Source: Gloeobacterales cyanobacterium (lineage in GTDB: Bacteria; Cyanobacteriota; Cyanobacteriia; Gloeobacterales; PMM-0068). Taken from it: a stretch of 64,000 nucleotides of DNA. This document shows, in pieces, positions 4,867-40,251 of this stretch. The stretch covers positions 1 through 64,000 of the forward strand of contig JBBRSB010000020.1 in NCBI GenBank assembly GCA_038245785.1, read 5' to 3'. Each line of letters begins with the position of its first letter. The stretch's first letter is position 1. A program made the position numbers and the translations under genes. The notes under the pieces are model-generated. The model did not search any database. It was not told the origin of the DNA and saw nothing but the letters and a program-made list of their open reading frames with translations.

Positions 4867-5054
4867 AGGCGCAGGGGAAAGAAAAAGAAGGATGGATTTG
4901 CTTACTAAATATTAAGTGAATAGCTATTACGTTCGACGCACAATTCTTGGAATACTTTCTGATTAGGACTTATTTTAAGCGGTCGAGAGAAAGCTAAGGC
5001 CGTGTTAACATCGGGCTTAGAACTTATTCCTCTCTCTGATTCTATGAGTATGCC

Positions 5055-6203
5055 ATGAGCACTGAAATCGGAATTGTCACCGCCCAAGTTATTCCAGACC
5101 GTACCGTTGGTCAGATCCACGTATACGATGGGGCCGGCAAAGGTAAGTCCCAAGCAGCTCTTGGGGTCGTTTTGCGCTCCATTGGCCTGGGAATTGCGGA
5201 AGACCGTCAGAACCGAGTCTTGCTGTTACGGTTTCTGAAAGGACCGGGGCGGCAATACACGGAAGATGCTGCTATTGAAGCACTAAGACGCGGTTTTCCT
5301 CACTTGATTGACCAAGTGCGCACAGGGCGTTCTGAATTTTTTGGTGCCGACGAAGTCACCGTTTTTGACAAGAAAGAAGCCCGTCGTGGTTGGGATATTG
5401 CGAAAGGAGCGATTCAGTCCGGGCTCTATAGCGTTATGGTTTTGGATGAACTCAGCCCCGTTTTAGACCTGGGTCTATTGCCGATTGCAGAGGTGGTCAG
5501 TTCGATCCAGAACAAGCCGAAAGACCTCGAAGTGATCATCACGGGTCGGGGTGCTCCTCCAGAGATTATTGAGATTGCTGACCTTCATTCAGAAATGAAG
5601 GCCCACCGCCGTCCGCCGGAGCTCCTGAATGGTCAGACTAGCGGCACAGAAGCTTCTGGGATCGAAATTTATACCGGAGCCGGTAAAGGCAAATCCACCA
5701 GCGCCTTGGGACGAGCTTTGCAGGCCATTGGTCAAGGCATTTCCCGCGACCAATCCCACCGTGTCCTGATTATGCAGTGGCTCAAGGGGGGAACGGGCTA
5801 TACCGAAGACGCAGCGATTCGAGCATTGCGTCAGAGCTATCCTCACTTGATTGACCATCACCGCTGTGGCCGAGATGCCATCGTTTGGCGCGGCAAGCAG
5901 CAAGAGTTGGACTATGTAGAAGCTGAGCGGGGCTGGGAATTGGCCAGAGCAGCCATCGCCTCCGGGCTCTACAAGACAATCATTCTAGATGAACTGAATC
6001 CAACGGTGGACCTGGAACTCTTGCCCGTAGAACCGATTGTTCATTCTCTATTGCGCAAGCCTCGGGATACGGAAATCATCATCACCGGTCGCTGCCAAAA
6101 TCAGCCAGCCTACTTTGAATTGGCTACGGTCCATTCAGAGATGGTTTGTCACAAGCACTATGCCGAACATGGCATGGACCTCAAACGTGGAGTCGACTAC
6201 TAA
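5055..6203 (+). CDS. cobO: Cob(I)yrinic acid a,c-diamide adenosyltransferase (tandem two-domain cyanobacterial form)
   Basis: Two copies of YxGAGKGKS P-loop, LDEL and IITGR motifs. Confidence 0.9.
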   Translation: MSTEIGIVTAQVIPDRTVGQIHVYDGAGKGKSQAALGVVLRSIGLGIAEDRQNRVLLLRFLKGPGRQYTEDAAIEALRRGFPHLIDQVRTGRSEFFGADEVTVFDKKEARRGWDIAKGAIQSGLYSVMVLDELSPVLDLGLLPIAEVVSSIQNKPKDLEVIITGRGAPPEIIEIADLHSEMKAHRRPPELLNGQTSGTEASGIEIYTGAGKGKSTSALGRALQAIGQGISRDQSHRVLIMQWLKGGTGYTEDAAIRALRQSYPHLIDHHRCGRDAIVWRGKQQELDYVEAERGWELARAAIASGLYKTIILDELNPTVDLELLPVEPIVHSLLRKPRDTEIIITGRCQNQPAYFELATVHSEMVCHKHYAEHGMDLKRGVDY

Positions 6204-17242: not shown

Positions 17243-18179
17243 ATTGCTTCCCTTCGGGGAAGTTGAACTAATGGAAACAATAAAGTGTAGCCTTTTGCGA
17301 CTTGACGCACTGAAATTGCTTCCCTTCGGGGAAGTTGAACTAATGGAAACATCTACTAAACACAAGTTTTACTGTTCGTTCAAAGACAATTGCTTCCCTT
17401 CGGGGAAGTTGAACTAATGGAAACATCTTTGAGTAACATACTAGCGTTAACTCGCTAGACCCATTGCTTCCCTTCGGGGAAGTTGAACTAATGGAAACGC
17501 TAGCTTAAGTCTAGACTCAAACGATGGCGATAAAACAATAATTGCTTCCCTTCGGGGAAGTTGAACTAATGGAAACTTTATGTGGTTCTGGTACCCCCTA
17601 CCATACCTGTCAGATTGCTTCCCTTCGGGGAAGTTGAACTAATGGAAACAGGCTTGCCAAACCTTACTGGATCACAAAAACTAAACACTTGCTTCCCTTC
17701 GGGGAAGTTGAACTAATGGAAACGGAGTAACTGTAGTGCTGTTTGGACATATCTCAGATTGCTTCCCTTCGGGGAAGTTGAACTAATGGAAACGTGACTT
17801 CACGTATGATATCCTCCTTAAGTTTCCAGATGTTGATTGCTTCCCTTCGGGGAAGTTGAACTAATGGAAACAGGTAAGCTTCGGCTTCATTCCACTCAGG
17901 AGAACCGAATTGCTTCCCTTCGGGGAAGTTGAACTAATGGAAACACTGAGCCTTGGGCAGGCCCAACGCACTGAAGCTCATAGCACGCACACGAACGATT
18001 GCTTCCCTTCGGGGAAGTTGAACTAATGGAAACAAAACCCATGCTTGATTAACTTCTAGGAACTTTAAAATTGCTTCCCTTCGGGGAAGTTGAACTAATG
18101 GAAACCTGTCCTTTCCAATCGCTTGTACTAGATCATTGGGGTGGTTACTTCTCTTTGGGGAAGTCGAATTACTCAAAAC
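17243..18179 (+). CRISPR. CRISPR array 1: 12 near-perfect 36-nt repeats plus degenerate terminal repeat (18144-18179), 12 spacers of 34-53 nt
   Basis: Repeat ATTGCTTCCCTTCGGGGAAGTTGAACTAATGGAAAC with CTTCCC-TTCG-GGGAAG hairpin; orientation from leader, GAAAC 3' end and decayed trailer. Confidence 0.98.
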
Positions 18180-18351: not shown

Positions 18352-19383
18352 ATGCTACCTTCTCCAGAAGAGCCGCGTTTCAAGCAGCGCTTTCAAAGAT
18401 TGCAGAAAATTTTAGAGATACTTTCAGTCTCTGCACAAGGAATGACGGCAAAAGAGTTGTTGAAATCTCTTGAAAAACTGGGTTATCCCTATGAAGTTAA
18501 GGAGCGGAGGTTATATGAAGACCTTCGGTTTCTGATTGAGGAGGTAGATAGTCCGCTGCTCAAGAAAAAAGATGGGTACTATCAAAGAATTCTCTCTCAA
18601 GACTATTTATTGCTGAGTGAAAAGGAAGCTTTATTCTGTTTAAGCTTGGTTTCTAGCATAGGGAATGCTTTGCTTCATAAATCTACTCGCAAGTATAGAG
18701 ATGCGCTCCTGGCAAAAATGGCACAAACTCATCCCAATCTTGTGGAAAAAATAGAGCATCCTATACGCCAACTTATTGTTCCCATCGTTCGTAATGTGCA
18801 AGATGATGATGACCTGGATGATGGCATTTCTTCTCAATTGATCACCGCTATCGAGCAGAAAAAGCAGGTAAATCTGACCTTTAAACAAGCTCAACTGGGT
18901 AGAGTTCTTGGCTGCTATCCACTTCGGCTTATTTTTTATATCCGTTCCTGGTATCTGGTCGGCTATTGCAACCCACCGTCAGGACTAAGCAAAAAGATGA
19001 ATCGACAGCTATGCACTTTTCGCTTGGATAATATCAGTCAGGCTGAAGTGTTATTAGCGGAATTTACTTTAACTTCCAAAATGGATGTGGATGCAGCGCT
19101 AGATCTCGCTTGGGGACTAAATTTTTATGACCCTATTAGCCCTGTAACTTTACGCTTTAGCCAAGAGCTTGCACCGCATATTGAAGGTAATAAGCGACAT
19201 CCCAGTGCCGTCTTAGAAAAGCAATCTGATGGTTCTCTTCTATACAAAGCCCAATACTATCAAGGCTCTCTAGATTTTCTACAGTGGATTAGGCAGTACG
19301 GCGCAGGAGTAGAAGTCAGAGAGCCGGAGGAACTACGCCAGGAACTTATTCAGGATCTGAAGCAGGCATTGGCGCTTTACTAG
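18352..19383 (+). CDS. WYL-domain transcriptional regulator (HTH-WYL-WCX)
   Basis: N-terminal wHTH (RRLYEDLRFL), YPLRLIFYIRSWYLVGY, TFRLDNI, WIRQYGAGVEVREPEELR. Confidence 0.92.
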   Translation: MLPSPEEPRFKQRFQRLQKILEILSVSAQGMTAKELLKSLEKLGYPYEVKERRLYEDLRFLIEEVDSPLLKKKDGYYQRILSQDYLLLSEKEALFCLSLVSSIGNALLHKSTRKYRDALLAKMAQTHPNLVEKIEHPIRQLIVPIVRNVQDDDDLDDGISSQLITAIEQKKQVNLTFKQAQLGRVLGCYPLRLIFYIRSWYLVGYCNPPSGLSKKMNRQLCTFRLDNISQAEVLLAEFTLTSKMDVDAALDLAWGLNFYDPISPVTLRFSQELAPHIEGNKRHPSAVLEKQSDGSLLYKAQYYQGSLDFLQWIRQYGAGVEVREPEELRQELIQDLKQALALY

Positions 19384-21088
19384 ATTCCATCAGTTGATTA
19401 ATAACCCATGTTCGGATCCGAGAGTAAATATAGTACCCGCCATCTTCATCAAAAGTTCTAATTGCGTGAGAACCTGAAATCCCTGCACTGATTTCATATA
19501 TTTTTTTCATATTGCTAAGAATTTCATCGGGCAAACAAGCGTTTCTTAAATTTTCTTTTTCATAGAAATTTAAGTTACCAGTATTTTTTTCATCTGATTC
19601 TAATCGTTGTAGCATTTCTTCTTTTGATACACCTTTAGCATTATGAATTATTTGGTTCCTTTGGTTGATCCAATAATCTAGCGTACTCATGAGTTGAGAT
19701 AGCTCATTCCATTTGTCTTCAGGAAGTTTTGCCAATTGTGTCTTGTCATATCTAACTAGAGCCTCAATAAAATTTAGTCGCCTGCTGCGACTTTCTAGTT
19801 TGCATTCCTGTAAATCTATACACTTAGGCTCTAGGTCTTCAAATATTTGCTTTAAGGCTTCAGGCATTTTGTATATTTTTAGAAAATAACCATTAGACTT
19901 CTGTTCTGTAGTCGCTAATTTTTTATCCCATTTCTTAATAAGTTGATTTAGAGTTTCTTCATAGAAACAAGACATTCTCCATAAATGATCAGGTATTTGA
20001 CCTAATTCCCATTTGATTTTGGATTGAGCATATAGATCTAAAAGTAAATCATGGTTCGCAAGCAATTTTCCTGGAAAAGTTTCGTCCTTCTCCAGAATCT
20101 TAGATTTTTGCATCAGATTCTTTGCATTCTTACTATCCAAATTCAGATAATAACAGGTCAGATCTAAAGCATCCAAAATTAATGATATGGATTCCTCATC
20201 AACTGAAATACTTTGATTAGAGATCCAGGCTAGATCCTCCTGCCAACTTTTTAATATTTCGCGGGCTCCATCAAAATCCCAGCGATTTAAAAGCTGTATA
20301 ACCGTTTGATATTTTTGACTCCTCATATATTGCCAATAGGAAGTAGGCTTACATGTAGAAGGTTTTCCTGCAAGGACATCCTCAATTCTAAGAATAGGTT
20401 CTAGGAAGAGCTGCTTGCGAATATTTGAAGAAATGCCTTGAATCTGGAGTGCCATCTGCATCTGAGGAGTTCCTCCCTTAAGGCTAATCAAGGCTATTTC
20501 ATTGTTAGATAGCTCACTACTATTGAAAAAATCATAATAGTAATTGAGCAATTTGTCTTGATCATTTGCTGGTATATCCAGTGGAACTATATTTGCTATC
20601 AGGGTAATACTTGACAACTCGTACTCAAACCACTTTTCTAATATCTTGAACAAGAATATTGAATCTTGGGAATGCCCAAAGGGATTTACATCACTAACTT
20701 GATCAGTAACAAAGGTATAGACAGTTTTAACTTTAAAATTCTCTCTAGCTCGCTTAATCACACCCCAAATTCTTCCTGGTCGAATACGTTTATGCCAGAT
20801 CTCAGGATTTTGGTTATATGCATCTAAGAGTTTACTGGTGAGTTCTCGTAGAGAAAAGGTATATTCTTTTCTTCCTTGCTTCTCTATAACCTTTACTGGC
20901 AAGCTAAGTTCAGGACACAAGGAAGTTCCTAGTAATTGGTTTCTAGAATCCCATATATTTCTCTCTTCCTCGTTCAGCCCAGAAGAGTCAACATTCTTTT
21001 CATCACGGTCAAAGCCTATAGGGATATAGTACTCACCTATTTTTACTGCTAAATCAGAGGTGCCAATATTAGCAATTAAGATAGTCAT
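19346..21088 (-). CDS. CARF-HEPN accessory ribonuclease (Csm6/Csx1-like)
   Basis: ILIANIGTSDL and ISLKGGTPQMQMAL CARF-like motifs; C-terminal RNQIIH (RxxxxH) HEPN motif; last gene of cmr operon. Confidence 0.78.
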   Translation of the reverse strand: MTILIANIGTSDLAVKIGEYYIPIGFDRDEKNVDSSGLNEEERNIWDSRNQLLGTSLCPELSLPVKVIEKQGRKEYTFSLRELTSKLLDAYNQNPEIWHKRIRPGRIWGVIKRARENFKVKTVYTFVTDQVSDVNPFGHSQDSIFLFKILEKWFEYELSSITLIANIVPLDIPANDQDKLLNYYYDFFNSSELSNNEIALISLKGGTPQMQMALQIQGISSNIRKQLFLEPILRIEDVLAGKPSTCKPTSYWQYMRSQKYQTVIQLLNRWDFDGAREILKSWQEDLAWISNQSISVDEESISLILDALDLTCYYLNLDSKNAKNLMQKSKILEKDETFPGKLLANHDLLLDLYAQSKIKWELGQIPDHLWRMSCFYEETLNQLIKKWDKKLATTEQKSNGYFLKIYKMPEALKQIFEDLEPKCIDLQECKLESRSRRLNFIEALVRYDKTQLAKLPEDKWNELSQLMSTLDYWINQRNQIIHNAKGVSKEEMLQRLESDEKNTGNLNFYEKENLRNACLPDEILSNMKKIYEISAGISGSHAIRTFDEDGGYYIYSRIRTWVINQLMESSKAPMPASDPE

Positions 21089-21111
21089 TGTATCCCTAAA
21101 TAATTTCTATT

Positions 21112-21693
21112 TTATCTAGCCTGTAAAACTTGGTTCGCCGTTAATTCCAAGTCGGGAAATAGCTGCGAAATGATTTTCTCATCACTCGCATACTCTTTTG
21201 TCTCATACAATCCCTCATTCCATACCAAAATCGAAACTTTCAAACTGAGTGGATCGACAATCCAGTATTCAGAAATGCCTAATGCTGCATACTCTGACTG
21301 TTTATACCGATAATCGATGGCCTGTGAACCAGGACTCACTACTTCAACCGCTAATAGAGGGGTAGTCTGAAGTACCGCAGAGATATTCCTTAATTCAGCC
21401 CATTGGCTACTCGTCATCACACACAGGTCTGGATCGCGAGAGGTATTGATACCTGTGCGCACCCCAACATCCCTTTTCGCAAGCCATGGTAGCTCACGCC
21501 TTCTAATTTCCCCTTTGAATACATCCTGGAGAAATTCAATGATGTCGGAATGGAGTCCTGTAGGCAGTGGAACCATCAGTAATGCTCCATGTGCAAGTTC
21601 ATAGCGATTGTCTGTACCATCCTCTAAAACCAAATATTCTTCAAAAGTTAAACTGGCTGACTTAGTAGAAACCATTTTCTTTCCTTCACTCAT
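21112..21693 (-). CDS. Uma2 (DUF820) PD-(D/E)xK nuclease-fold protein
   Basis: LTFEEYL, RYEL..G, PDL, LAVEVVSPG, EYWIVDP; ATGA overlap with cmr6 stop. Confidence 0.9.
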   Translation of the reverse strand: MSEGKKMVSTKSASLTFEEYLVLEDGTDNRYELAHGALLMVPLPTGLHSDIIEFLQDVFKGEIRRRELPWLAKRDVGVRTGINTSRDPDLCVMTSSQWAELRNISAVLQTTPLLAVEVVSPGSQAIDYRYKQSEYAALGISEYWIVDPLSLKVSILVWNEGLYETKEYASDEKIISQLFPDLELTANQVLQAR

Positions 21694-23660
21694 AGGGGCC
21701 AAACTTGCATTGCTCCATCCCTCACCAGTACTTTAGCGAATTCTGCTCGGTCTTTATGGTCAGCGCCAAATATTGTCACTGCCTGATAAGACCGTCCCTG
21801 CTCTGGAAAATTGGATTGAATTATAACGAATGATGGTGCTTCAAGTGTTCCCCCTACATTAGGATTTCCCTGTCCATTCCGATTACTCCCCTTATATTTT
21901 TCGCTGCTATAGAGCAGTTCCAGTGCTTCACCGCGTACAGATGTTTTGTCACCATCCCTTCGCCAATCACTAACATCTTGAGGGTGTGTCAGGTCTTCAG
22001 AAGGCATTAAACAGATGTGTGTATTGCGATTCAATACATCTTGGTTTCGCCTGTTTCTAGCCCCTTCTCCAGGATTTCCATCTCCTGGTTTGCCAGTTGG
22101 CTTTTGTATATTTAGGAATTCTTGGTGTACCTGTCTTAAAAACTTTTGCCAATCCTCTTTGGCGAGGGGCAAAATGGAACCCATTACTTCCCAGTGGCAA
22201 CCCCTCATTCTGCGGTCTAGTAAGTGCAGAGGGCGTCGGGAACCCCGGCCTAAACCGCCAAGTAAACTTGCTAGAAATAGAATCTTTTCAATGAGCTCTA
22301 GTTCTTGCTGGCTTCCCTTGGCTTCTAGAAGAATTTTTCCACTACAGAAATAGGGACTGTTACCTTTACCTTGCTGCCATTCCACACCAATACTGAGATT
22401 CCCCTGTTTGCCAAGAGCCCCAAAGAGTTTTTCTTCTAGTATTTGAACTTCATCGGGTGCATACATGCCTAAAGCGATAGCACGAAACCAGTAGCGTAGG
22501 ACTCCCCGTAAAGCAACAGGACGAAACTCTAGCGTTCCTTGCCAGTCATTTTCTTTACTAGGAGGAGAAGCTCCATATATACCCTGACTCCAAAGTTTGA
22601 AATCATAGGTCCGGGAATGGGAAAATCCTGCACCTAGCTTTGTTCTGCCATAGCCTGCACTGACCCGTGAACCAATTCCTTCTTTCAAGGCTTCTCCCAG
22701 CCATTCTTTTACTACTTCGACATCTTTTTGTTGACCACGACTGGTAGGCAGTATCCCAATTACTAATTCAGGTTGATCCATGGTCAGTAGAGGATGGGGG
22801 ACGGGACCATATTTTACTTGACCGTTCTGCCAAGACCATTGGGGATTAGCCATGTCTATACTTAGGTTTGGCCTAGTTGGAAAAGCATCTAAAATTTGAA
22901 CTCGACCTGCGCCGTGTTCTAAAGTTCCTAAAAGCCTATCTGCTTCTGATGACTCACCGTTTCGTCTTGCCCAAGCCCGTGCTGCGCCTTTTAAGCTACT
23001 TGCCGGAATATACGGGACGCCATAAACGGGATGAAATGCAGGTAGCAATAACTCGCGGAAGCCACGCATTCCCCCAACCCGTAAGCGCCATGGAAACTGG
23101 ACTGCCAAAACAGTGCCATTTTGGGCTAACTTGCGCGTTCGATTCGCAAGTTTTGCGTACAGTTCTTTGCACGTATCATCGGCATCTACCGCCGATGCAA
23201 GAACTGGTTGGGCTAGTTCGTTATTTTTATTATCTACTCCGAAGGAAGCAAAGTTTAGGGCTTGAAGTGGACTTTTTATAGCAGTTGAGCTTACTCCTCG
23301 GCTTACTTGATTTGGCACAGGCTGTCCTGCTGGCCTGAAACTTTTATTGATAGCTGTTGCAACCACTGCTTTTTGTGGTGCAATTCCCACCTGACAAAAA
23401 ACCTTGTCTCGTTTTAGTTCAATAGGAAGAGCAGATTGTATTTTTGGCCGTAATTTATTAGCTTCATTTTTAAGTTCTTCACTAGGAAAATATATTGTTA
23501 GACTCTCGTTAGTAATAGAACCAAAACTACTTTCTTTGAGGGCAGGATAAAAAGCTGGAGGTTGGGGTTTTCTCCTGCTCAAATCATCTAGAAAAGCCTG
23601 CCACTCCTGCTCAGGAGATTTACCCTGTTTACTTCCACGACCATCACGACTGAAGCTCAT
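21690..23660 (-). CDS. cmr6: Cmr6-Cmr1 fusion RAMP protein with extra N-terminal domain
   Basis: Cmr6 part: FHPVYGVPYIPASSLKGAAR, GIGSRVSAGYG; Cmr1 part: RPVALRGVLRYWFR, LGGLGRGSRR; ATG 23660 overlaps cmr5 stop. Confidence 0.88.
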   Translation of the reverse strand: MSFSRDGRGSKQGKSPEQEWQAFLDDLSRRKPQPPAFYPALKESSFGSITNESLTIYFPSEELKNEANKLRPKIQSALPIELKRDKVFCQVGIAPQKAVVATAINKSFRPAGQPVPNQVSRGVSSTAIKSPLQALNFASFGVDNKNNELAQPVLASAVDADDTCKELYAKLANRTRKLAQNGTVLAVQFPWRLRVGGMRGFRELLLPAFHPVYGVPYIPASSLKGAARAWARRNGESSEADRLLGTLEHGAGRVQILDAFPTRPNLSIDMANPQWSWQNGQVKYGPVPHPLLTMDQPELVIGILPTSRGQQKDVEVVKEWLGEALKEGIGSRVSAGYGRTKLGAGFSHSRTYDFKLWSQGIYGASPPSKENDWQGTLEFRPVALRGVLRYWFRAIALGMYAPDEVQILEEKLFGALGKQGNLSIGVEWQQGKGNSPYFCSGKILLEAKGSQQELELIEKILFLASLLGGLGRGSRRPLHLLDRRMRGCHWEVMGSILPLAKEDWQKFLRQVHQEFLNIQKPTGKPGDGNPGEGARNRRNQDVLNRNTHICLMPSEDLTHPQDVSDWRRDGDKTSVRGEALELLYSSEKYKGSNRNGQGNPNVGGTLEAPSFVIIQSNFPEQGRSYQAVTIFGADHKDRAEFAKVLVRDGAMQVWPL

Positions 23661-24055
23661 GTATCGTCTGCCTCCCCAAGAATAGCGGATGCCCAGAACG
23701 ACCATTCCCTCGCCAATTCAACAGCTAAGTGATTCAGCGCTGCATATTCTTTGAGCGGCATATTGATTAAACTTCCAGGATCATTGACAGTGAATCCTTG
23801 TCCGCTAAACGTTTTTAGTTTTTCGAGGAATTTCTGATACACCTTACCTTTGTACTTCGTATCTTCTGCTTTACCTGCCAGGAACTTAACAGCGTCCCCG
23901 CTGAGTCGATGTAGACCCCAAGTAGAAATATAAGCGGTTAGCCCTTGTATCAAACCGCTAGCTTTTTTGTGATGCGAACTTGCCAAATCTTTTTTGAGTT
24001 CAGTAAGAGCTGCATAGGCTTCCTTACTAAAATTCCGAGAGTCTAGTTTGAGCAT
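23657..24055 (-). CDS. cmr5: Cmr5 small subunit
   Basis: 132-aa helical protein between cmr4 and cmr6; YISTWGL, LAREWSFWA. Confidence 0.8.
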   Translation of the reverse strand: MLKLDSRNFSKEAYAALTELKKDLASSHHKKASGLIQGLTAYISTWGLHRLSGDAVKFLAGKAEDTKYKGKVYQKFLEKLKTFSGQGFTVNDPGSLINMPLKEYAALNHLAVELAREWSFWASAILGEADDT

Positions 24056-24058
24056 GGT

Positions 24059-29146
<5,088 letters not shown>

Positions 29147-29240
29147 AAAAGACCTACGGGAAAATACGGAGAATGTAAAGTGAGGCAAGCGTATCCAGAA
29201 AGTGCTTGATATCTGTCAAAACGAATACTTTATTCACAAT

Positions 29241-29319
29241 TGAGGCTACGTGCCTCATCCGTCTTGGCTCACGTACATAAACCACAGTAGAAGAATCGCA
29301 CTGCACCATACAGTGCAGT
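29241..29319. promoter_or_regulatory. Putative operators in divergent cas10 / csx18-cas1 promoter region
   Basis: TGAGGC-N5-GCCTCA (29241-29257) and ACTGCAC-N6-GTGCAGT (29300-29319). Confidence 0.55.
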
Positions 29320-29361
29320 CGCAATGACCCATACTCAAAAAGTAAGTATTCAGGCAAAATC

Positions 29362-29580
29362 ATGAATTGGGTGAGGCTTTTGCTGCTTCGTCACGTTTCG
29401 GGAGCGGCAGTGAATGGTTTGATTACCCTAGTCATTTTGCTCATTGCTCCTCTGGGGTTAGCGTCCGTTTTGACCTGCACGGCGTTGATCAGTTTGAGCA
29501 CTTTGGTCGTGGGTGTAGCGGCAGATGGGGTGCAGTACTGGTTAGAGGATGGCTCTACTGGGATTGACAAGACTCAGTGA
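29362..29580 (+). CDS. csx18: Csx18 small membrane CRISPR-associated protein
   Basis: AVNGLITLVILLIAPLGLA motif; directly upstream of cas1. Confidence 0.8.
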   Translation: MNWVRLLLLRHVSGAAVNGLITLVILLIAPLGLASVLTCTALISLSTLVVGVAADGVQYWLEDGSTGIDKTQ

Positions 29581-30569
29581 TGGCAACCCTATATTTGTTG
29601 GACCAAGGGTGCCGAGTCGCCCTCAGGGATGAAGCTTTACTGGTTTATCAGCAAACAGACCTGAAACAGACGGTGCCGCTACCAACTTTAGAGCGTGTGC
29701 TGGTTTTTGGCAGTGCGCATCTGACTACGCCTGTAATCCGAGCCTGTTTAAGACGCGAGGTGGGGATAGGCTATCTATCTCGTCAGGGGCGCTGCTATGG
29801 TCGGATTTTACCGATTCGTTTGGGCTATCGTTCTCTATTTCGGTTGCAACAATCGCTAGGAGCGGAAGCAGCGCTGGGCGCAGCACGGGCGATGGTCACC
29901 GCCAAGATTCAAAATAGCCGGGTTTTGCTGTTGCGTTCTCAAAGACGAAGACCGCTGCCTGCTCTAGAACAGGCGATTACTTTTCTAGATTATTTTGCTC
30001 AAAAGGCTCGTGAGGCTTTGAGTCTAGAAACTTTACGAGGATATGAAGGGGCAGCGGCTGCTCAGTATTTCCCTGCTTTTGGTCTAATGCTGACGGAACC
30101 AGATTTTGTGATGACCCAAAGAAGTCGTCGTCCCCCGCTGAATCCGGTAAATACACTTTTGAGTTTTGGCTATAGCGTCCTCTGGAATCATCTTCTCGGA
30201 CAGATAGAACTGCAGGGATTAGATTCCTATCTGGGGATCTTCCATACAGCCAATGACCGTCATCCAGCTTTAGCTTCTGATTTGGTGGAGGAGTTTCGTT
30301 CACCGATTATTGATTCTTTAGTAGTTTGGCTAATTAATAGTCGAGTAATCCAGGTTATGGATGACTTTGAATTTCGTGATGGGGGTTGTTTCCTAAATGA
30401 AAGAGGAAGGCGCAAGTTTCTCAAGTACTTCATTCAAGAGATGAACGAACTTGTTCAGGTGGATAATTCTATGCTTCCACGTTGGGCTTTATTGGAGAAG
30501 CAGGTGAGCGCTTTCAAAAGGTTTTTGTATCATCCTGAAGAAGATTATCAGCCCTATCGGATACGTTAA
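29580..30569 (+). CDS. cas1: Cas1 (no RT or Cas6 fusion)
   Basis: TLYLLDQG, LRGYEGAAA.QYF, RRPP.NPVNTLLSFGY, LASDLVEEFR. Confidence 0.97.
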   Translation: MATLYLLDQGCRVALRDEALLVYQQTDLKQTVPLPTLERVLVFGSAHLTTPVIRACLRREVGIGYLSRQGRCYGRILPIRLGYRSLFRLQQSLGAEAALGAARAMVTAKIQNSRVLLLRSQRRRPLPALEQAITFLDYFAQKAREALSLETLRGYEGAAAAQYFPAFGLMLTEPDFVMTQRSRRPPLNPVNTLLSFGYSVLWNHLLGQIELQGLDSYLGIFHTANDRHPALASDLVEEFRSPIIDSLVVWLINSRVIQVMDDFEFRDGGCFLNERGRRKFLKYFIQEMNELVQVDNSMLPRWALLEKQVSAFKRFLYHPEEDYQPYRIR

Positions 30570-30845
30570 ATGCTGTATATTATTACCTACGATATTCCCA
30601 GTAATAAGCGAAGAAATAAAGTAGCTAAGCTGCTAGAAGGCTATGGTAAAAGGGTGCAGCTTAGTGTTTTTGAGTGCGAATTGCCGGAGAAGTTATTAAT
30701 AGAATTAAAGACAAAGCTTCGTAAGAAGGTTGATATGACTGAGGATTCAGTGCGCTTCTATGTCATATCCAGTCATACCTTGGGTCAGGTGGAAATATGG
30801 AATGGACCTCCTGTAGCGGAATCTGCGAAATCGGTAATAGTCTGA
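30570..30845 (+). CDS. cas2: Cas2
   Basis: YIITYDI..NKRR.KVAKLLEGYGKRVQLSVFEC, DSVRFY. Confidence 0.97.
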   Translation: MLYIITYDIPSNKRRNKVAKLLEGYGKRVQLSVFECELPEKLLIELKTKLRKKVDMTEDSVRFYVISSHTLGQVEIWNGPPVAESAKSVIV

Positions 30846-30856
30846 CTATGGCTAGA

Positions 30857-30892
30857 ATTGCTTCTTTTCAGAGAGGTCGAACTAATGACAAA
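30857..30892 (+). repeat. Solitary degenerate CRISPR repeat downstream of cas2
   Basis: ATTGCTTCTTTTCAGAGAGGTCGAACTAATGACAAA, 27/36 identical to array repeat, stem still pairs. Confidence 0.75.
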
Positions 30893-31194: not shown

Positions 31195-31527
31195 TCCAAT
31201 TTATTTCTTTTTCATGAGTGATCAAAGCCTGCTATCCTGAACAGTCAGTAGGTATACAATTTAGCTTCCATGGCATTGATTCCTTTAGTTTGGCGAGGCT
31301 CTCCAAAATTGTGTTCAAACACTTGGCACAGGTCAACCTATTTAACCTCTTTTGGGTTGTTTATCCTGTGGTCAATAATTTTTAGGGTAGCCGCCATATT
31401 TTATGTAGTACCACTTGTCTATTACAGAAGGTTCAATTCCTTCTGACTTAAGAACTTCGGTTGCAGTATGAAAAGGACCTCCCACAGCAAAATTTACGGA
31501 ATTGGCGGTGATTTGATGATGTTTGGA

Positions 31528-31705
31528 GCGATGGGGTCACCAAAAAGCCTAAAGGCTCATTCTTGCGCTGACCCCGTCGATACCTATCCAGGCAAGACTT
31601 TCAGCCATTTTTTTGTGACAAAACCCCCGCTGTACGAGAGAAAATTCAGACCCCGTCGCAAACCGCCTCTAGACACCCGACCTGGCAAGGGTTTTAATGG
31701 AGGCT
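31528..31705 (+). promoter_or_regulatory. CRISPR leader 2
   Basis: Close copy of 17064-17242, directly 5' of first repeat. Confidence 0.85.
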
Positions 31706-33839
31706 ATTGCTTCCCTTCGGGGAAGTTGAACTAATGGAAACAATCATTTCAAACTCTCCTATTGTTGTTTTTCAGTATTGCTTCCCTTCGGGGAAGTTGA
31801 ACTAATGGAAACTATATTCCATGACAAATCTCCAATGAAAAGAATGAATTCAAAAGAAAAATTGCTTCCCTTCGGGGAAGTTGAACTAATGGAAACGACA
31901 CCTACCAGTCTGAAAAGGAAAGCGCCCGTTCCGGGTTATTGCTTCCCTTCGGGGAAGTTGAACTAATGGAAACTATTTATGCATAAAAAGAGAGCGCCCT
32001 TCGGTAGTTAAAATTGCTTCCCTTCGGGGAAGTTGAACTAATGGAAACAAGGAAGCAGAATCATCTGCTTCTTTAGATGAGCTTATATTGTTAATTGCTT
32101 CCCTTCGGGGAAGTTGAACTAATGGAAACTGCTTAAAGCTTTGTCAACCTTCTCGGAGGTTGATATTGCTTCCCTTCGGGGAAGTTGAACTAATGGAAAC
32201 AGACCTTCAGGGATAGGCCCTATACATTCTTCCCAGATATTGCTTCCCTTCGGGGAAGTTGAACTAATGGAAACGGTGATTTAGAAAACCTTGGAGTTCT
32301 CCCCAGAGAAAAGACATTGCTTCCCTTCGGGGAAGTTGAACTAATGGAAACAGCCCGCAGCAAAGCTATAATTTCCGTGGTTACAATTGCTTCCCTTCGG
32401 GGAAGTTGAACTAATGGAAACTACCAAACTTCTGGATTGCTTGGCGAAGTGTGAGACAATTGCTTCCCTTCGGGGAAGTTGAACTAATGGAAACTCTCCT
32501 ACTTCTCAAGAATGGGAAGTGTTATCTGATAAATTGCTTCCCTTCGGGGAAGTTGAACTAATGGAAACACCAAGCGCAATGCCCAAGTGTACACTTTCTA
32601 AAAATGAGCTATACTATTGCTTCCCTTCGGGGAAGTTGAACTAATGGAAACTACCAAGGGTTACATAACCTTTAACCGTCTTATTTATTCCATAATTGCT
32701 TCCCTTCGGGGAAGTTGAACTAATGGAAACTCTTTTGTAGTCAATCAACGCGTTATCTAGGCATCGATTGCTTCCCTTCGGGGAAGTTGAACTAATGGAA
32801 ACTAAACGTGCCCTACTACAGCACCTTTAGGCGTGTAGACATTGCTTCCCTTCGGGGAAGTTGAACTAATGGAAACTTGTAATGCGGCGCGCCAGAGGAC
32901 AAGTTTCAGGAATATTTCTTCACTTCGGGGAAGTTGAACTAATGGAAACACCGTAAATTTACTTAGAATTTCACGCATAATAATGATTGCTTCCCTTCGG
33001 GGAAGTTGAACTAATGGAAACTTTAGGACCGTAGCAGACGGCATAATTTCCGGATAAAGTATTGCTTCCCTTCGGGGAAGTTGAACTAATGGAAACCTTG
33101 TTATGAGGAACCTCAATGAAAAAGAAGAAGACAATTGCTTCCCTTCGGGGAAGTTGAACTAATGGAAACCGGATAAGGTGCTCTTCAACATAGTTGATGA
33201 TGATATTTCGGCATTGCTTCCCTTCGGGGAAGTTGAACTAATGGAAACATCAGCTTCTTCAAACACCTCATCGCCCCATCGTGACTCCAATAACCCTATT
33301 GCTTCCCTTCGGGGAAGTTGAACTAATGGAAACCAGTTGAGCAATCAGCACAACCAGAATTAACGCCCCATTGCTTCCCTTCGGGGAAGTTGAACTAATG
33401 GAAACTTGCGGAGCGCTTGATAGAGGTCTTCAAACTTCTCAAATTGCTTCCCTTCGGGGAAGTTGAACTAATGGAAACACAGTTAAAAGTAATTCTGCGC
33501 CCAGCATGAAAGCTGCATTGCTTCCCTTCGGGGAAGTTGAACTAATGGAAACTTAAATCTTTCATTGCAGTACAAAAAACAAAAGGATATTGCTTCCCTT
33601 CGGGGAAGTTGAACTAATGGAAACATTAATCAGGTCTTTGGCTACTTGCACTTTGTACACGTATTGCTTCCCTTCGGGGAAGTTGAACTAATGGAAACAA
33701 CAGTTACGCCATCACGAGCGAAAGCCTTGATGATATTTTCCTATTGCTTCCCTTCGGGGAAGTTGAACTAATGGAAACAGATAGTCTTTGTTGAAGGCAA
33801 TTTCATAATCACCTGTGATTGCTTCCCTTCGGGGAAGTT
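31706..33839 (+). CRISPR. CRISPR array 2: 28 full repeats (variant at 32914-32949) plus 5' 22 nt of a 29th; 28 spacers of 34-49 nt
   Basis: Same 36-nt repeat as array 1; last repeat cut after ...GGGGAAGTT at 33839. Confidence 0.98.
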
Positions 33840-33848
33840 TCGGAAAGC

Positions 33849-33878
33849 TTGCCCGTAGCATGAATTCCGTGCTACTAT
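33849..33878 (+). promoter_or_regulatory. higBA promoter with overlapping operator
   Basis: TTGCCC-N18-TACTAT with GTAGCA-N9-TGCTAC palindrome; start codon immediately downstream (likely leaderless). Confidence 0.6.
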
Positions 33879-33881
33879 GCT

Positions 33882-34178
33882 ATGGTGATAGCTTCATTTA
33901 AAAATGATGGTGTAGAAGATATCTTCAACGGTGCAGACACTAAAGTTGCTCGTAAAACCTGCCCCATGTCTTTATGGAAAGTCGCTGCTCGAAAACTCGA
34001 TCAGATTGACTCCGTTGCAACATTAAATGAATTGCGTCTACCGCCAGGTAACTTCTTAGAAGCCTTGTCCGGTGATCTTAAAGGGCAGCATAGTATCCGT
34101 ATCAACGACCAGTACCGAATCTGTTTTGTATGGTCAGAGCAAGGACCTGCTCAAGTAGAAATTGTTGATTATCACTGA
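33882..34178 (+). CDS. higB: HigB toxin (plasmid maintenance killer family)
   Basis: IASFK, LRLPPGN.LEAL.GD.KGQHSIRINDQYRICF, VEIVDYH. Confidence 0.92.
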   Translation: MVIASFKNDGVEDIFNGADTKVARKTCPMSLWKVAARKLDQIDSVATLNELRLPPGNFLEALSGDLKGQHSIRINDQYRICFVWSEQGPAQVEIVDYH

Positions 34179-34199
34179 ATCGTTATAGAGAGTACCGTC

Positions 34200-34505
34200 A
34201 TGGTTCGCATTCCTACACACCGTTCCCCCACGCATCCCGGCGAGATGTTGCTAGAAGAGTTCCTAAACCCCACGGGCTTGACGCAGCGTGAACTTGCCGA
34301 TGCTATTCACGTCCCGTATCAGCGCATCAATGAGATCATCAATGGACGTCGAGGGATTACACCAAGTACCGCACTTCGGCTAGAGAAATTCTTTGGAATG
34401 TCGGCAGGCTTCTGGATGAATCTTCAACTCCGCTGGGACCTCTATTATGCCCAACAGACTGAGCAAGAAACGCTCAAATCCATTCACCGCTATGTATCAG
34501 CTTGA
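34200..34505 (+). CDS. higA: HigA antitoxin (HTH)
   Basis: PTHPGEMLLEEFL.P, ITPSTALRL..FFG.SA.FWMNLQ. Confidence 0.92.
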   Translation: MVRIPTHRSPTHPGEMLLEEFLNPTGLTQRELADAIHVPYQRINEIINGRRGITPSTALRLEKFFGMSAGFWMNLQLRWDLYYAQQTEQETLKSIHRYVSA

Positions 34506-34531
34506 TGCCTAGAGGTTGTTCGGTAAACCGA

Positions 34532-34541
34532 TAATGGAAAC
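34532..34541 (+). repeat. 3' end of split CRISPR repeat
   Basis: TAATGGAAAC equals repeat positions 27-36, 26 nt after higA stop. Confidence 0.7.
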
Positions 34542-34592
34542 CCATTAAATCCTCCAATACTGGTGGACTTCCGATCTGTTTTTTTCTGGTCT

Positions 34593-34628
34593 TATTCTTC
34601 TGCTCAGTGAAGTTGAATTGCTAGAAAG
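34593..34628 (+). repeat. Strongly degenerate CRISPR repeat
   Basis: TATTCTTCTGCTCAGTGAAGTTGAATTGCTAGAAAG, about 23/36 identical, core GAAGTTGAA kept, one spacer length after 34541. Confidence 0.5.
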
Positions 34629-34651
34629 TTCTGGAAAATTTTACGTTAACT

Positions 34652-34683
34652 GTTTCCCCCCAAAGTTGGGGGGCTAGGGGGCG
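34652..34683 (+). repeat. GC-rich cyanobacterial REP-like hairpin element
   Basis: CCCCCC-AAAGTT-GGGGGG-CTAGGGGGCG. Confidence 0.55.
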
Positions 34684-34988
34684 AATTTATCACTCTTCTA
34701 GAAGATGATGTGCCTACCCATGAGGGAGCTAAACTCCATGCAGACAGTGCTCCAAGACTTGAAGAGTTAGGAGGTTCTGAGCCTCAAGCACAAGATATTC
34801 CTCGCCGTCGTTATGACAGCTAGACGAGCATAATGATTCCTGCTGATACCCTCAACCATTCCATTCCACCAATGTAAAACTTCTGGGCGATTGACCCTTT
34901 TCCATCCTTGATGCTTTGACGTGATTGATTTAGAGTGGCTTGCAATAACCTAAGCGTTGGGTTAAGCTGGGCGTGTGCAGGAGTGAGT

Positions 34989-35234
34989 ATGCCAACGGTT
35001 CTTAGGAAACAAGGTTTTCGAGTCGTCATTTATTCCAACGATCACTTGCCTTCTCCTGTCCACGTTTTTAAAGGAAGCGGTGAAGTGCGAATTGAGTTAG
35101 GAGATGAGGAATCGGCCCCTAAGCTATTGACCGTCAGTGGACAAATCAGCGACAAAGATGTAGGCAAAGCGCTGTATCTCGTGAAGGAACACCAAGTCAA
35201 ATTACTAGCAAAATGGAGAGAAATCCATGCGTAA
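34989..35234 (+). CDS. DUF4160 protein (putative toxin partner)
   Basis: MPTVLR..GFRVVIYSNDHLP.PVHV, LLAKWREIH. Confidence 0.85.
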   Translation: MPTVLRKQGFRVVIYSNDHLPSPVHVFKGSGEVRIELGDEESAPKLLTVSGQISDKDVGKALYLVKEHQVKLLAKWREIHA

Positions 35235-35709
35235 CGATAATCTTGTAATTGACGCAGCGTTGCAATCGCAGATCAATAAAGCTCGTCAAGCAGGTGAAAC
35301 GCTAGATGAAAATGAACCGCGTGCGGTAAAGGCCTGGTACGAACTCATCTCAACAAGGGTTTTCATTGAACTAAGGAATGGCGTTGTGATTGGGTTTCCT
35401 TTTAAACTGCTGCAAGGATTAGAATCGGCAACTCCTGAGCAGATTGCAGAAGTTGAAGTCACACCCTCTGGCTATGGTCTTCACTGGGAAAGTCTGGATG
35501 TAGACCTAGGAGTACCGCAACTGGTTGCGGGTATTTTTGGGACAAAAGCCTGGATGACAGAATTAGGACGTCTAGGTGGACAGGCAAAATCAGCCGCGAA
35601 AGAGAAAGCTGCTCGCGAAAATGGTAAGCGTGGAGGCCGACCTCGGAAGCCTGAAACTGTGCAGGAGGATACTACTAGACCGATAAAACATTCGATTGCT
35701 TCCCTTTGA
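35227..35709 (+). CDS. DUF2442 protein (putative antitoxin)
   Basis: LQGLESAT.EQ, GLHWESLDVDL, AARENGKRGGRPRK; last codons and stop lie in a CRISPR repeat half. Confidence 0.85.
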   Translation: MRNDNLVIDAALQSQINKARQAGETLDENEPRAVKAWYELISTRVFIELRNGVVIGFPFKLLQGLESATPEQIAEVEVTPSGYGLHWESLDVDLGVPQLVAGIFGTKAWMTELGRLGGQAKSAAKEKAARENGKRGGRPRKPETVQEDTTRPIKHSIASL

Positions 35710-35855: not shown

Positions 35856-36518
35856 ATGGTAGCAGCGCTCGATTCGATTTCAGTTGCAGAAATTGATTTA
35901 CAGGAAGGCAATGTGCTGGTGCTGCATGATGTTTCGTGGGAGCGCTATGAGGCGATCGTGGCTACCTTACAAACTCGCCACAACTATCGAACTGCGTATT
36001 TAGATGGAGTGTTGGAAATTATGGCTCCGATGCCTGCCCATGAGCGTCCCCATCGCACTATTGGCTATTTTGTGACTGCATTACTCGATGCGGAAGAACG
36101 AGACTGGGAGGATTTTGGGGCGACGACGTTTCGCAAGAAGGAAAAGCGGGCGGGGTTGGAGCCGGATACTTGTTTTTACGTGGATGAGAATGCGCGAGTT
36201 GTTCGCGCTTGTATGGAGCAGATGGATTTGGCGGTCTATCCGCCACCGGATTTGGCAATTGAAGCGGATGTCACTTCTGGGACAACGTTAGAAGTGTACT
36301 TAAGATTGCAGGTGCCGGAGGTTTGGATTTGGCGCAAGAATGAGCTAAACATTAATCTGTTGCAAAATGGGAAATATGTGGAATCGCAGCAGAGTCAGGT
36401 ATTTCCCAACTTTCCGATTCAGGAGTTGATTCCGCAGTGGCTCGATCGGGCGTTGCAAGATGGTACGAGTAAAGCCCTTCGCGATATACGAAAGTTGTTG
36501 ATCAAGGCAACGTTGTAA
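35856..36518 (+). CDS. Uma2 (DUF820) family protein
   Basis: VSWERYE, YLDGVLEIMAP.P.HE, GLEPDTCFY, PPPDLAIE, VPEVWIW. Confidence 0.9.
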   Translation: MVAALDSISVAEIDLQEGNVLVLHDVSWERYEAIVATLQTRHNYRTAYLDGVLEIMAPMPAHERPHRTIGYFVTALLDAEERDWEDFGATTFRKKEKRAGLEPDTCFYVDENARVVRACMEQMDLAVYPPPDLAIEADVTSGTTLEVYLRLQVPEVWIWRKNELNINLLQNGKYVESQQSQVFPNFPIQELIPQWLDRALQDGTSKALRDIRKLLIKATL

Positions 36519-37584: not shown

Positions 37585-37801
37585 GATTGAGGTAACACCA
37601 TCTGGCTATGGTCTTCACGGGGAAAGTCTGGATCTAGGAGTACCAGAACTGGTTGCAGGTCTTTTTGGTACACAAACCTGGATGAAAGAGTTAGGACGTC
37701 TAGGCGGACAGGTAAAATCAGCCGCGAAGGAGAAAGCTGCTCGCGAAAATGGCAAGCGTGGAGGCCGACCTCGGAAGCCTGAAGCTGTGCGGAAGAGTTG
37801 A
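37585..37801 (+). pseudogene. 5'-truncated second copy of DUF2442 gene
   Basis: High nucleotide similarity to about 35451-35660 with 6-nt deletion; no N-terminal half. Confidence 0.8.
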
Positions 37802-37860: not shown

Positions 37861-38187
37861 TCAATCTGCAATCAACTTACTGCTTACTAGACGATTTAGA
37901 CTTATGCCCTGTTCAGCCGCTCGGGTCGCCAGTTCCCGATGCTGTTCAGGAGGAATTCTGACCATGAACCTGCCGCTGTATTGTTTTTTAGATAAGGGGG
38001 TTGGAATAGGCTCATTGTGAGCCGCTAAATCAAGAATGCATTCTTGTACTAGAGCAACAATTCCAGAGAAGGCTTTTTGGTGATCCTTATCCAGCCAACT
38101 CATGCCAGGAAATTCAGCACATAAGCCAACGAACTCTTCATCCTCTTCAGACCAGAACACTCGGTAGGTATAAAATTTAGCGTCCAT
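37861..38187 (-). CDS. hicB: HicB antitoxin
   Basis: YTYRVFWSEED.EFVGLCAEFP, YSGRFMVRIPPE.HR.LA..AAEQGISLN; ATG at 38187. Confidence 0.9.
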   Translation of the reverse strand: MDAKFYTYRVFWSEEDEEFVGLCAEFPGMSWLDKDHQKAFSGIVALVQECILDLAAHNEPIPTPLSKKQYSGRFMVRIPPEQHRELATRAAEQGISLNRLVSSKLIAD

Positions 38188-38432
38188 CACATTGATTCCT
38201 TTTTCTTGATAGCGGCTAAGACTTGCTTTACTTGGTACGGTTTTCCCATGCCTTTTTTCGGCTGGATGTTGACGTATGGCTCTCCTTCCCAAAGCGTCCG
38301 ATAAAAGCGATGGCTCCCGCTGCTTTGTCGAGGTTCTCCAAAATAGTGGTCACACACTTTGCACAAGTCAGAGAACTTAATGCCTTTTGGGTTATTCTCC
38401 ATGCTGGCAACAATTTTTTGGATATTAGCCAT
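38187..38432 (-). CDS. hicA: HicA toxin
   Basis: NNPKGIKFSDLCKVC.HYFGEPRQ.SGSH, KPYQVKQVL. Confidence 0.88.
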   Translation of the reverse strand: MANIQKIVASMENNPKGIKFSDLCKVCDHYFGEPRQSSGSHRFYRTLWEGEPYVNIQPKKGMGKPYQVKQVLAAIKKKESM

Positions 38433-38544: not shown

Positions 38545-38739
38545 TGAACTTGCTGATGCCATTCACGTCCCGTATCAGCGCATCAATGAGATCATCGATG
38601 GGCGTCGAGGGATTACACCTAGCTCTGCGCTTCGGCTAGAGAAATTCTTCGGAATGTCGGCAGGCTTCTGAATGAATCTCCAGTTGCGATGGGACCTCTA
38701 TGACGCCCAAGAGACTGAGTAGGAAGCACTCAAATCTAT
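38545..38739 (+). pseudogene. Truncated higA copy with nonsense mutations
   Basis: Similar to 34289-34483; TGG>TGA at 38669-38671 and TAG at 38720-38722; 5' third missing. Confidence 0.85.
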
Positions 38740-38812
38740 TTGTTATACACAGCTTGAGAAATTTAGTTAAGATTGCGAGCGGGAGCTTAAATTAACTCTT
38801 CAGAGGCAAACC

Positions 38813-40215: not shown

Positions 40216-40251
40216 ATTACTTCTCTTGGGAAAAGTTGAACTAATGGAAAC
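40216..40251 (+). repeat. Orphan CRISPR repeat
   Basis: ATTACTTCTCTTGGGAAAAGTTGAACTAATGGAAAC, 31/36 identical, last 19 nt perfect. Confidence 0.9.

Follow-up and report, generated by a model that had tools for sequence, protein, structure and literature searches.

Type II toxin-antitoxin (TA) modules of the HigBA/GraTA type are the closest described relatives of the insert reported here, which shares with them the protein families, matches to both chains of PDB 6f8s, the toxin gene in first position and a putative palindromic operator over the promoter; location alone differs, the insert lying inside a CRISPR repeat. The two 6f8s chains are titled 'Putative Killer protein' and 'XRE family transcriptional regulator', and the entry is presumably GraTA. 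In the superintegron of Vibrio cholerae, higBA cassettes are scattered along an extended array of repeated sites and are reportedly able to stabilise DNA.

TA genes have also been described at CRISPR loci. Pectobacterium atrosepticum is already on record as having a TA pair between two stretches of CRISPR; as far as the extract of that account used here goes, the likeness lies in a TA pair between stretches of one repeat family with cas genes adjoining, and the difference in subtype and phylum. In the Gloeobacterales locus, the position of the break can be given to the single base, and one unit only lies beyond the insert. In CreTA, an RNA toxin is reportedly repressed by the effector via a crRNA-like RNA from ectopic degenerate repeats (PMC9458426); the idea of a TA unit that makes cells depend on CRISPR-Cas is common to both cases, whereas the HigBA insert has a protein toxin and its own protein repressor. 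The Synechocystis plasmid pSYSA offers a likeness in its cyanobacterial type II TA loci, many of which lie beside CRISPR systems and for which a maintenance role is proposed in the portion cited (PMC4963859), where none of them is placed within an array. Cyanobacterial arrays can also be landing sites for foreign DNA: array-targeting Tn7-like transposons have, in the excerpted description, tnsAB, tnsC and tnsD, a fixed spacer position and no cargo (Chacon Machado and Peters 2025, PMC11837452). The HigBA insert differs in that it has no tns genes and no transposon ends, and in that its break lies inside a repeat. The reading that we favour, with a probability of roughly two in three, is that an ordinary higBA was captured by illegitimate recombination in an eroding array tail and has been inherited vertically as a tolerated passenger.

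The window (the whole 64,000-nt stretch analysed) holds two arrays of a 36-nt repeat, ATTGCTTCCCTTCGGGGAAGTTGAACTAATGGAAAC, which account for all 40 full repeats of the genome; the assembly contained no further arrays for comparison. Regular repeats, unique spacers, leaders, degenerate terminal repeats and adjacent cas genes (Cmr2, Cmr3, Cmr4, Cmr6/1, Cas1 and Cas2) were all found, and the locus that hosts the insert is of type III-B (cmr). All features given below are on the + strand. The leader of array 2 (31525..31705) had ~90% column identity with the region upstream of array 1, and was followed by 28 full 36-nt repeats with their spacers (31706..33778) and by spacer 28, the last ordinary spacer (33779..33817). 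A search of the whole window against Rfam returned no family at gathering score.

With up to 3 mismatches allowed, the window contained 41 copies of the 5' 22-nt part of the repeat where 0 were expected; array 1 accounted for 12 of them and array 2 for 29. The copy at 33818..33839 (repeat 29), in which the hairpin CTTCCC-TTCG-GGGAAG is intact, was the sole one of the 41 genome copies without a 3' part behind it; the repeat breaks off cleanly, 2 nt past the hairpin. The 3' 10 nt of the repeat, TAATGGAAAC, reappear at 34532..34541, and GAAC (repeat positions 23-26) was lost at the insertion with no duplication. Counted over the two strands of the 5.0-Mb genome, TAATGGAAAC had 49 occurrences (40 in full repeats, one in a solo repeat at 40216, one at the insert and seven elsewhere), a scarcity that puts the odds of finding it by chance on the correct strand within 1 kb at about 1 in 1000. 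Coordinates and copy counts thus bear out an earlier note on this DNA, which had repeat 29 broken after 22 nt, its tail resuming at 34532 and GAAC missing. The interval between the two parts (33840-34531) is 692 nt long. The same note had pointed out that it starts TCGG and ends CCGA; both ends are present, but they are merely 4 nt long, and longer similarity between the flanks was no better than in shuffled sequence, the observed score being reached in 936 of 2000 shuffles for direct and 1787 of 2000 for inverted matches. An imperfect direct repeat across the junctions that had been spotted by eye, GAAGTTTCGGAAA versus GAGGTTGTTCGGTAAA, was likewise rejected as not above shuffles.

Beyond the insert, a 51-nt interval (34542..34592) occupies the place of spacer 29 and is followed by the terminal degenerate repeat of array 2 (34593..34628), with 23 of 36 consensus positions and the variant GAATT.CT that is common to the terminal repeats of arrays 1 and 2. 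The proposal that the array resumes past higA therefore stands as regards the terminal repeat but not as regards the interval, which is no ordinary spacer: its length is within reach of the others (34-53 nt), yet 25 of its nucleotides (34546-34570) make up half A of a hairpin element that is dispersed through the genome in 19 copies. Half B, which has 26 copies in the genome when up to 4 mismatches are allowed, lies at 34659..34684, so that the A-to-B distance, usually 39-40 nt, is 113 nt at the end of array 2.

The content of the insert agreed with the description of a complete minimal HigBA module embedded in a single repeat, made up of promoter/operator, higB, higA and a 26-nt trailer. The first 16 nt (33840..33855) are a filler common to no homologous module, in which a possible -35 (TTGCCC) could be read by eye. 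A putative palindromic operator/promoter block, TAGCATGA...ATGCTA with TACTAT (33856..33881), follows; it was not flagged by a strict sigma-70 scan, and was kept upstream of higB in nine of nine cyanobacterial and three of three metagenome homologues shown. higB (33882..34178) encodes a RelE/ParE-fold toxin of 98 aa, matching PF05015 over residues 5-98 with 63.7 bits (cut-off 27; E 2.3e-17) and PDB 6f8s chain B with E 1.9e-23; no NCBIfam toxin model matched HigB. Its C-terminus carries, in the 6f8s alignment, the residues DYH, which we take to be catalytic. higA (34200..34505) encodes an HTH antitoxin of 101 aa, with 107.5 bits to the equivalog TIGR02607 (cut-off 47.7), 45.6 bits to HTH_3, E 2.6e-13 to 6f8s chain A, and 13 solved relatives that include HigA entries. 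The two genes share a strand with a 21-nt gap, higB upstream, which is the toxin-first operon order. The trailer (34506..34531), with a small hairpin TCGG-TAAA-CCGA, has a single genome copy. Judged from sequence, HigB and HigA are ordinary, intact members of type II TA families. HigB would be toxic as a ribosome-dependent mRNA endonuclease, and HigA would act as antitoxin and repress the operon at the palindromic operator; conservation of this operator in distant homologues makes the self-regulation ascribed to the cassette apparent, if putative. The GC content of the insert, ~46% against 42-50% in the surroundings, is uninformative. That the insert coincides so nearly with a single operon is not predicted by random capture and, like the clean break, speaks against the favoured reading.

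Of 400 other cyanobacterial genomes, 75 had modules with nucleotide homology to this one, as had contigs from metagenomes; the homology was confined to the segment that begins with the operator at 33855/33856 and ends near the stop codon of higA. None of the 111 homologous loci elsewhere (31 genome, 80 metagenome) lay inside an array: a k-mer screen flagged two of the 31 genome loci, both of which were whole-unit tandem repeats, and one of the 80 metagenome loci had an array 3 kb away with a different repeat. TAATGGAAAC stood straight after a foreign higBA in none of the 112 loci fetched. Two copies occurred in these loci (L035 and L117), each being the start (ATGGAAAC) of the next gene, and were rejected as repeat tails since no repeat-like sequence lay ahead of them. 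The module matched no phage record; homologues among plasmid records were all below 72% identity and were named RelE/ParE toxin and HigA antitoxin by PGAP.

Both junctions were recovered independently in metagenome assemblies. Logan contigs of run X1 spanned 33752-34334 and 34311-34900 without difference, at depths of 55.7 and 59.5, and the depth of the repeat 36-mer in this run (2391.7, ~40 times that of the contigs) fits 40 genome copies. Contigs of runs X2, X3 and X5, from two other studies, ran through the right junction as far as about 34708, with 6-16 differences. A chimeric join in the metagenome-assembled genome, which a 255-contig assembly and the tendency of repeats to invite misjoins might suggest, is therefore very hard to credit: an independent assembler covered both junctions at even depth, and three runs of other studies covered the right one. 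The presence of the right junction in two other studies argues that the insertion is old and inherited, and that it is no assembly error. The continuation beyond higA was kept in these relatives, so that neither of the two outcomes that the earlier note had named as refuting was observed. Against relatives of ~94% identity in other metagenomes, the differences in higBA were mostly synonymous: of the 30 coding differences listed 21 were synonymous and nine were not, a partial count pooled over contigs, since 40 of 71 differences were listed; no indel was reported in higB or higA. Such an insertion can evidently last through about 5% divergence in sequence while both its genes stay intact. As for an uninterrupted repeat 29, the first 31 nt of the 51-nt interval had no exact match in metagenome_contigs, and X1 had no contig linking spacer 28 straight to that interval, although contigs drop rare variants and this is uninformative either way. 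The congeners G001 and G002 are without the repeat type of repeat 29 and without the entire tail.

On the left, the alignment to X5 ended at 33856 and ~82 unmatched letters preceded a full repeat, so that the left junction of this relative may differ. On the right, 35 nt of trailer and repeat tail (34508-34542) recurred with two differences and unrelated flanks in X2, X3 and X5. This second context means that the right junction could be a recurrent site and no one-off scar, and it counts towards the idea that a recombination system directed a cassette to a fixed point in the repeat, the hairpin trailer being part of its site. The clean break 2 nt after the repeat hairpin and the small hairpin of the trailer itself would suit such a system as well. 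We nevertheless regard site-directed insertion as very improbable. The trailer is present once in the genome and is absent from other modules and from the higA fragment at 38.5 kb; the 35-mer had no match at up to 3 mismatches in the 400 other cyanobacterial genomes, and exact searches likewise returned nothing for a 24-mer of trailer plus tail in genome_contigs, a trailer 24-mer in viral_contigs and a repeat 3' 23-mer in genome_contigs. No recombinase gene adjoins the insert, and no repeat is shared by its two junctions.

Other routes of entry were compared with the same junctions. The insert was neither flanked by a target-site duplication nor bounded by terminal inverted repeats, the hallmarks of insertion sequences and MITEs, and apart from higB and higA it held no gene, transposase or other transposon gene included. 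Mis-integration by Cas1-Cas2 was rejected because Cas1-Cas2 integration would duplicate whatever lies between its staggered cuts, and at this site 4 nt were lost and none duplicated. Integron cassettes are mobile by attC recombination, with GTTRRRY as the recombination core; GTTGAAC in the repeat fits this core, yet by eye neither junction had the expected cassette ends, and no attC-like core site, likewise judged by eye, was seen at either of them. The absence of other marks points to illegitimate recombination as the joining mechanism. Under the favoured capture, a 692-nt piece of DNA with little beyond the operon would have been joined into the penultimate repeat by such non-transpositional recombination with loss of 4 nt, and would have passed vertically within the lineage thereafter; the event would have been tolerated because only the oldest unit of the array was cut off.

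The earlier note had also suggested that the cassette addicts the host to the CRISPR locus. Loss of the region would then release HigB with lethal effect, and transcripts that read on from the leader promoter would couple expression of the module to pre-crRNA. Among RNA runs, none was listed that contains this stretch. The module is oriented as the array is, no terminator-like site was found on the + strand from the array to higB, both genes are intact with mostly synonymous divergence, the right junction is inherited across strains, and the TA loci of pSYSA cluster with CRISPR systems, with a possible maintenance link in the portion of that report cited (PMC4963859). A selected guard of this kind is nonetheless unlikely. 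The module, with its own conserved operator/promoter (putative), would be independent of the array promoter and would not need it. Lying at the trailer end, at a distance of 2-14 kb from cas1-cas2 and from the cmr genes, it would penalise only deletions that reach it, leaving spacer loss and cas mutations unpunished. Its family shows no preference for arrays elsewhere, the adjacent TA genes are decaying, which does not suggest selection for guarding, and purifying selection is equally expected of any selfish TA. None of 41 spacer-like intervals matched 33840-34531, and with no spacer complementary to the module nothing ties it to the effector in the manner of CreTA. The module may still, if at all, have some stabilising effect on neighbouring DNA. 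Taken jointly, a guard running on pre-crRNA read-through, or a repeat-directed cassette whose trailer and tail footprint recurs in related populations, seems a doubtful proposition, with perhaps one chance in eight or so set aside for it. If the 35-nt junction were a recombination site, or if the module did stabilise the array, a type II TA would be linked to CRISPR maintenance, a link of a kind so far shown for the RNA-based CreTA only.

The surroundings are in keeping with capture and tolerance in a decaying tail. The 5.7 kb past the insert contain more TA genes (DUF4160/DUF2442, a second DUF2442 fragment, and HicB with a HicA-sized partner), a decayed second higA and three repeat relics. 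A 12-nt relic of the repeat 5' end lies at 35694..35705, at the end of a DUF2442 reading frame. The second higA copy (38545..38740) is 88% identical to 34289-34484, lacks higB and the 5' part of higA, and has in-frame stops. These extra TA genes, the decayed copy and the relics point to serial, unselected accretion, and the insertion would be one among several events that turned the 34.5-40.3 kb tail into a toxin-antitoxin junkyard with repeat relics. The module looks like a tolerated passenger among many such units, and not like a novel sort of CRISPR device; as the evidence stands, it is a neat curiosity rather than a new system, and its value is that of a base-resolved case in which a CRISPR array erodes at its old end and gathers selfish TA genes. 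Downstream of phoX, a solo degenerate repeat (40216..40251) retains 31 of 36 positions, with an exact 14-nt 3' part. At the opposite end of the array, a contig of run X2 carried a near-identical leader end, then the repeat, and then a different first spacer.

The penultimate repeat of array 2, repeat 29, was broken between positions 22 and 27 with GAAC missing, as the earlier note had described and as the sequence bore out. The full 36-nt repeat has 40 copies in the genome and its 22-nt 5' part has 41, the copy at 33818-33839 being the sole one not continuing into GAACTAATGGAAAC. An insert of 692 nt (33840-34531; first letters TCGG, last CCGA) follows 33839, and the repeat tail TAATGGAAAC (34532-34541) lies directly 3' of it; outside repeats, this 10-mer has only 7 copies on both genome strands. 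The terminal degenerate repeat (34593-34628), 51 nt past the tail, matched 23/36 consensus positions and has a GAATT.CT variant in common with the terminal repeat of array 1. The 5' half lacking its 3' part, the displaced tail and the terminal repeat together identify the penultimate repeat as split.

The CRISPR-Cas locus is type III-B and lies in the first 64 kb (the window) of an 85-kb contig (assembly of 5.0 Mb, 255 contigs). Array 1 (17243-18105; 12 repeats and one degenerate terminal repeat) is followed by a WYL-domain gene, the cmr genes on the minus strand (19.3-29.2 kb; Cmr2/Cas10, Cmr3, Cmr4 and a Cmr6/Cmr1-like protein), cas1 (29577-30569), cas2 (30570-30845) and array 2, which starts at 31706. 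Array 1 and array 2 are each preceded by 180 nt that are ~90% alike between them, which puts the leader at the left end and makes the right end the old one. No Cas6 family match was obtained among the scanned subset of locus ORFs (18352-30845). Two ORFs in the cmr row, of 580 aa and 132 aa, were without a family match. A degenerate repeat (30857-30892; 27/36 positions matching), which lies 12 nt past the stop codon of cas2 and precedes array 2 by 850 nt, may be a relic of an older array start.

The insert contains two reading frames, both on the plus strand. The first (higB, 33882-34178; 98 aa) matched Pfam HigB-like_toxin over its full length (63.7 bits, cut-off 27), and the second (higA, 34200-34505; 101 aa) matched the NCBIfam HigA equivalog (107.5 bits, cut-off 47.7) and also HTH_3. 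HigB resembled chain B (E 1.9e-23) and HigA chain A (E 2.6e-13) of one solved complex, 6f8s. The module is a real and intact HigBA. Homologous modules were found by nucleotide search in 75 of the 400 cyanobacterial genomes sampled besides this one (identity at most 69%) and in metagenome contigs (identity at most 77%, with HigA up to 94% identical). Homology began at 33855/33856 and ended near the higA stop in all full-length matches; the insert is thus a single operon flanked by unshared DNA, 16 nt long at the left end and 26 nt at the right. Conservation begins with a palindromic block, TAGCATGA...ATGCTA, which encloses TACTAT a few bases upstream of the start codon and was kept in 12/12 homologues inspected. 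It is read as a putative operator/promoter; a strict sigma-70 scan did not flag the block.

The window was compared with Logan contigs from metagenome runs including X1, X2, X3 and X5. X1 contigs covered 33752-34334 and 34311-34900 with zero differences, at depths of 55.7 and 59.5; the depth of the bare repeat, 2391.7, was ~40 times that of these junction contigs. Since X1 is probably the source sample of the assembly, its contigs are independent as to assembler but not as to sample. Two other studies supplied runs X2, X3 and X5, in which relatives ~93-96% identical were present. Their contigs spanned the right junction, the 51-nt interval (34542-34592) and the terminal repeat to ~34708 (16, 10 and 6 differences, respectively), and the continuation past higA is therefore kept in all three. 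Among the differences listed (there are 31 more), 21/30 coding ones were synonymous and 9/30 nonsynonymous, and the one indel reported lay outside the genes. In an X2 contig, a near-identical leader end (26/30 letters, by eye) was followed by the repeat and then by a different first spacer; this agrees with the usual pattern of arrays, in which leader ends are variable and trailer ends conserved. In X5, the contig reaching higB from its left side aligned from 33856 only; ~82 unmatched letters separate that point from a full repeat (77 nt in the reference), and the contig may have either the same architecture with another spacer or a different left junction. The 35 nt formed by the trailer and the repeat tail (34508-34542), single copy in the genome, occurred in X2, X3 and X5 in a second context, with 2 differences and with both flanks unrelated to the locus (one such contig was 1001 nt long). 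In X2 and X3, this second context was covered two to three times as deeply as the higBA contigs.

Resumption of the array after the insert, proposed earlier, held for the terminal repeat but not for the 51-nt interval in place of spacer 29, which is no ordinary spacer and belongs to a dispersed element. Positions 5-29 of the interval matched five other genome sites at 92-96%. The element is bipartite and consists of two GC-rich hairpins (19 genome copies of half A and 26 of half B, at ≤4 mismatches), with a usual start-to-start distance of 39-40 nt. Here, half A (34546-34570, within the interval) and half B (34659-34684, 31 nt past the terminal repeat) are 113 nt apart, so that the terminal CRISPR repeat sits between the halves.

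No direct or inverted similarity beyond that of shuffles was detected between the two junctions, where four bases were lost and none duplicated. The array-targeting Tn7-like elements known from cyanobacteria insert into spacers and carry tns genes, without cargo (PMC11837452); in contrast, the higBA insert lies in a repeat and has no transposase gene. Elsewhere, the higBA family showed no link to arrays: 0/31 genome loci lay in one, and 1/80 metagenome loci had one, 3 kb distant and with a different repeat. Together, these observations point to an illegitimate joining event by which the higBA segment would have been joined into the repeat. The place of higBA within repeat 29 is a scar that has been inherited, in an array tail undergoing erosion. 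Among the metagenome contigs, the closest HigA (94% aa identity) is on L043, where a 22-repeat array with an unrelated repeat (46-1651) lies 3 kb upstream of higBA (4667-5302), with a large gene between. On a congener contig (L010; 1398-2024 and 2100-3524), a higBA homologue (66% nt identity) adjoins short repeated motifs and a gene start; by eye, the motifs are candidate TnsB-binding repeats at the end of a Tn7-like transposon, and the gene a candidate tnsB.

Of repeat 29, the hairpin remains in the 5' piece and the last 10 nt in the 3' piece. The unit downstream of the insert has a handle that is no longer preceded by the hairpin and probably does not mature; the repeat before spacer 28 is intact. 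Because no terminator-like site was found on the plus strand between the array and higB, read-through from the array into higB is possible. Addiction of the host to the CRISPR locus via HigBA, as suggested in the earlier note, is possible but unsupported; HigBA would penalise deletions that include the module, and no others. CreTA works via a crRNA-like guide (PMC9458426), whereas no spacer matched the higBA module. Published work places toxin-antitoxin loci in clusters with CRISPR systems on Synechocystis pSYSA, with a suggested maintenance role (PMC4963859); in Pectobacterium atrosepticum, a putative toxin-antitoxin pair is described as lying between CRISPR2 and CRISPR3 (PMC3513311). No description of such a pair inside a CRISPR repeat was found in the literature searched, whose scope excluded most subscription journals.

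The array tail was followed for 5.7 kb past the terminal repeat. A DUF4160/DUF2442 pair (34935-35709) has a second frame ending in a 12-nt repeat piece at 35694, and a copy of the 3' part of DUF2442 (37587-37795; 90% identical) lies 2.1 kb downstream. Against the NCBIfam model for the DhiT toxin, the pair gave a weak match below threshold. A gene of the Uma2 family, for a putative endonuclease, lies in the tail (35856-36518), and another within the cmr row (21112-21702). A HicB-family antitoxin gene and its upstream partner (37861-38432, minus strand), 81 aa and of HicA size with no Pfam match, have an upstream region that abuts a truncated higA fragment, as if the HicB insertion had cut a higA copy. 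This fragment (196 nt, 88% identical to the in-array higA) carries stops and points to local duplication as the origin of the in-array module and of this relic. The picture from sequence is of an array tail broken repeatedly by small cassettes that also interrupt each other. An ATE_C-domain gene, phoX and a solo repeat at 40216 (31/36 positions matching) were also found in the tail.
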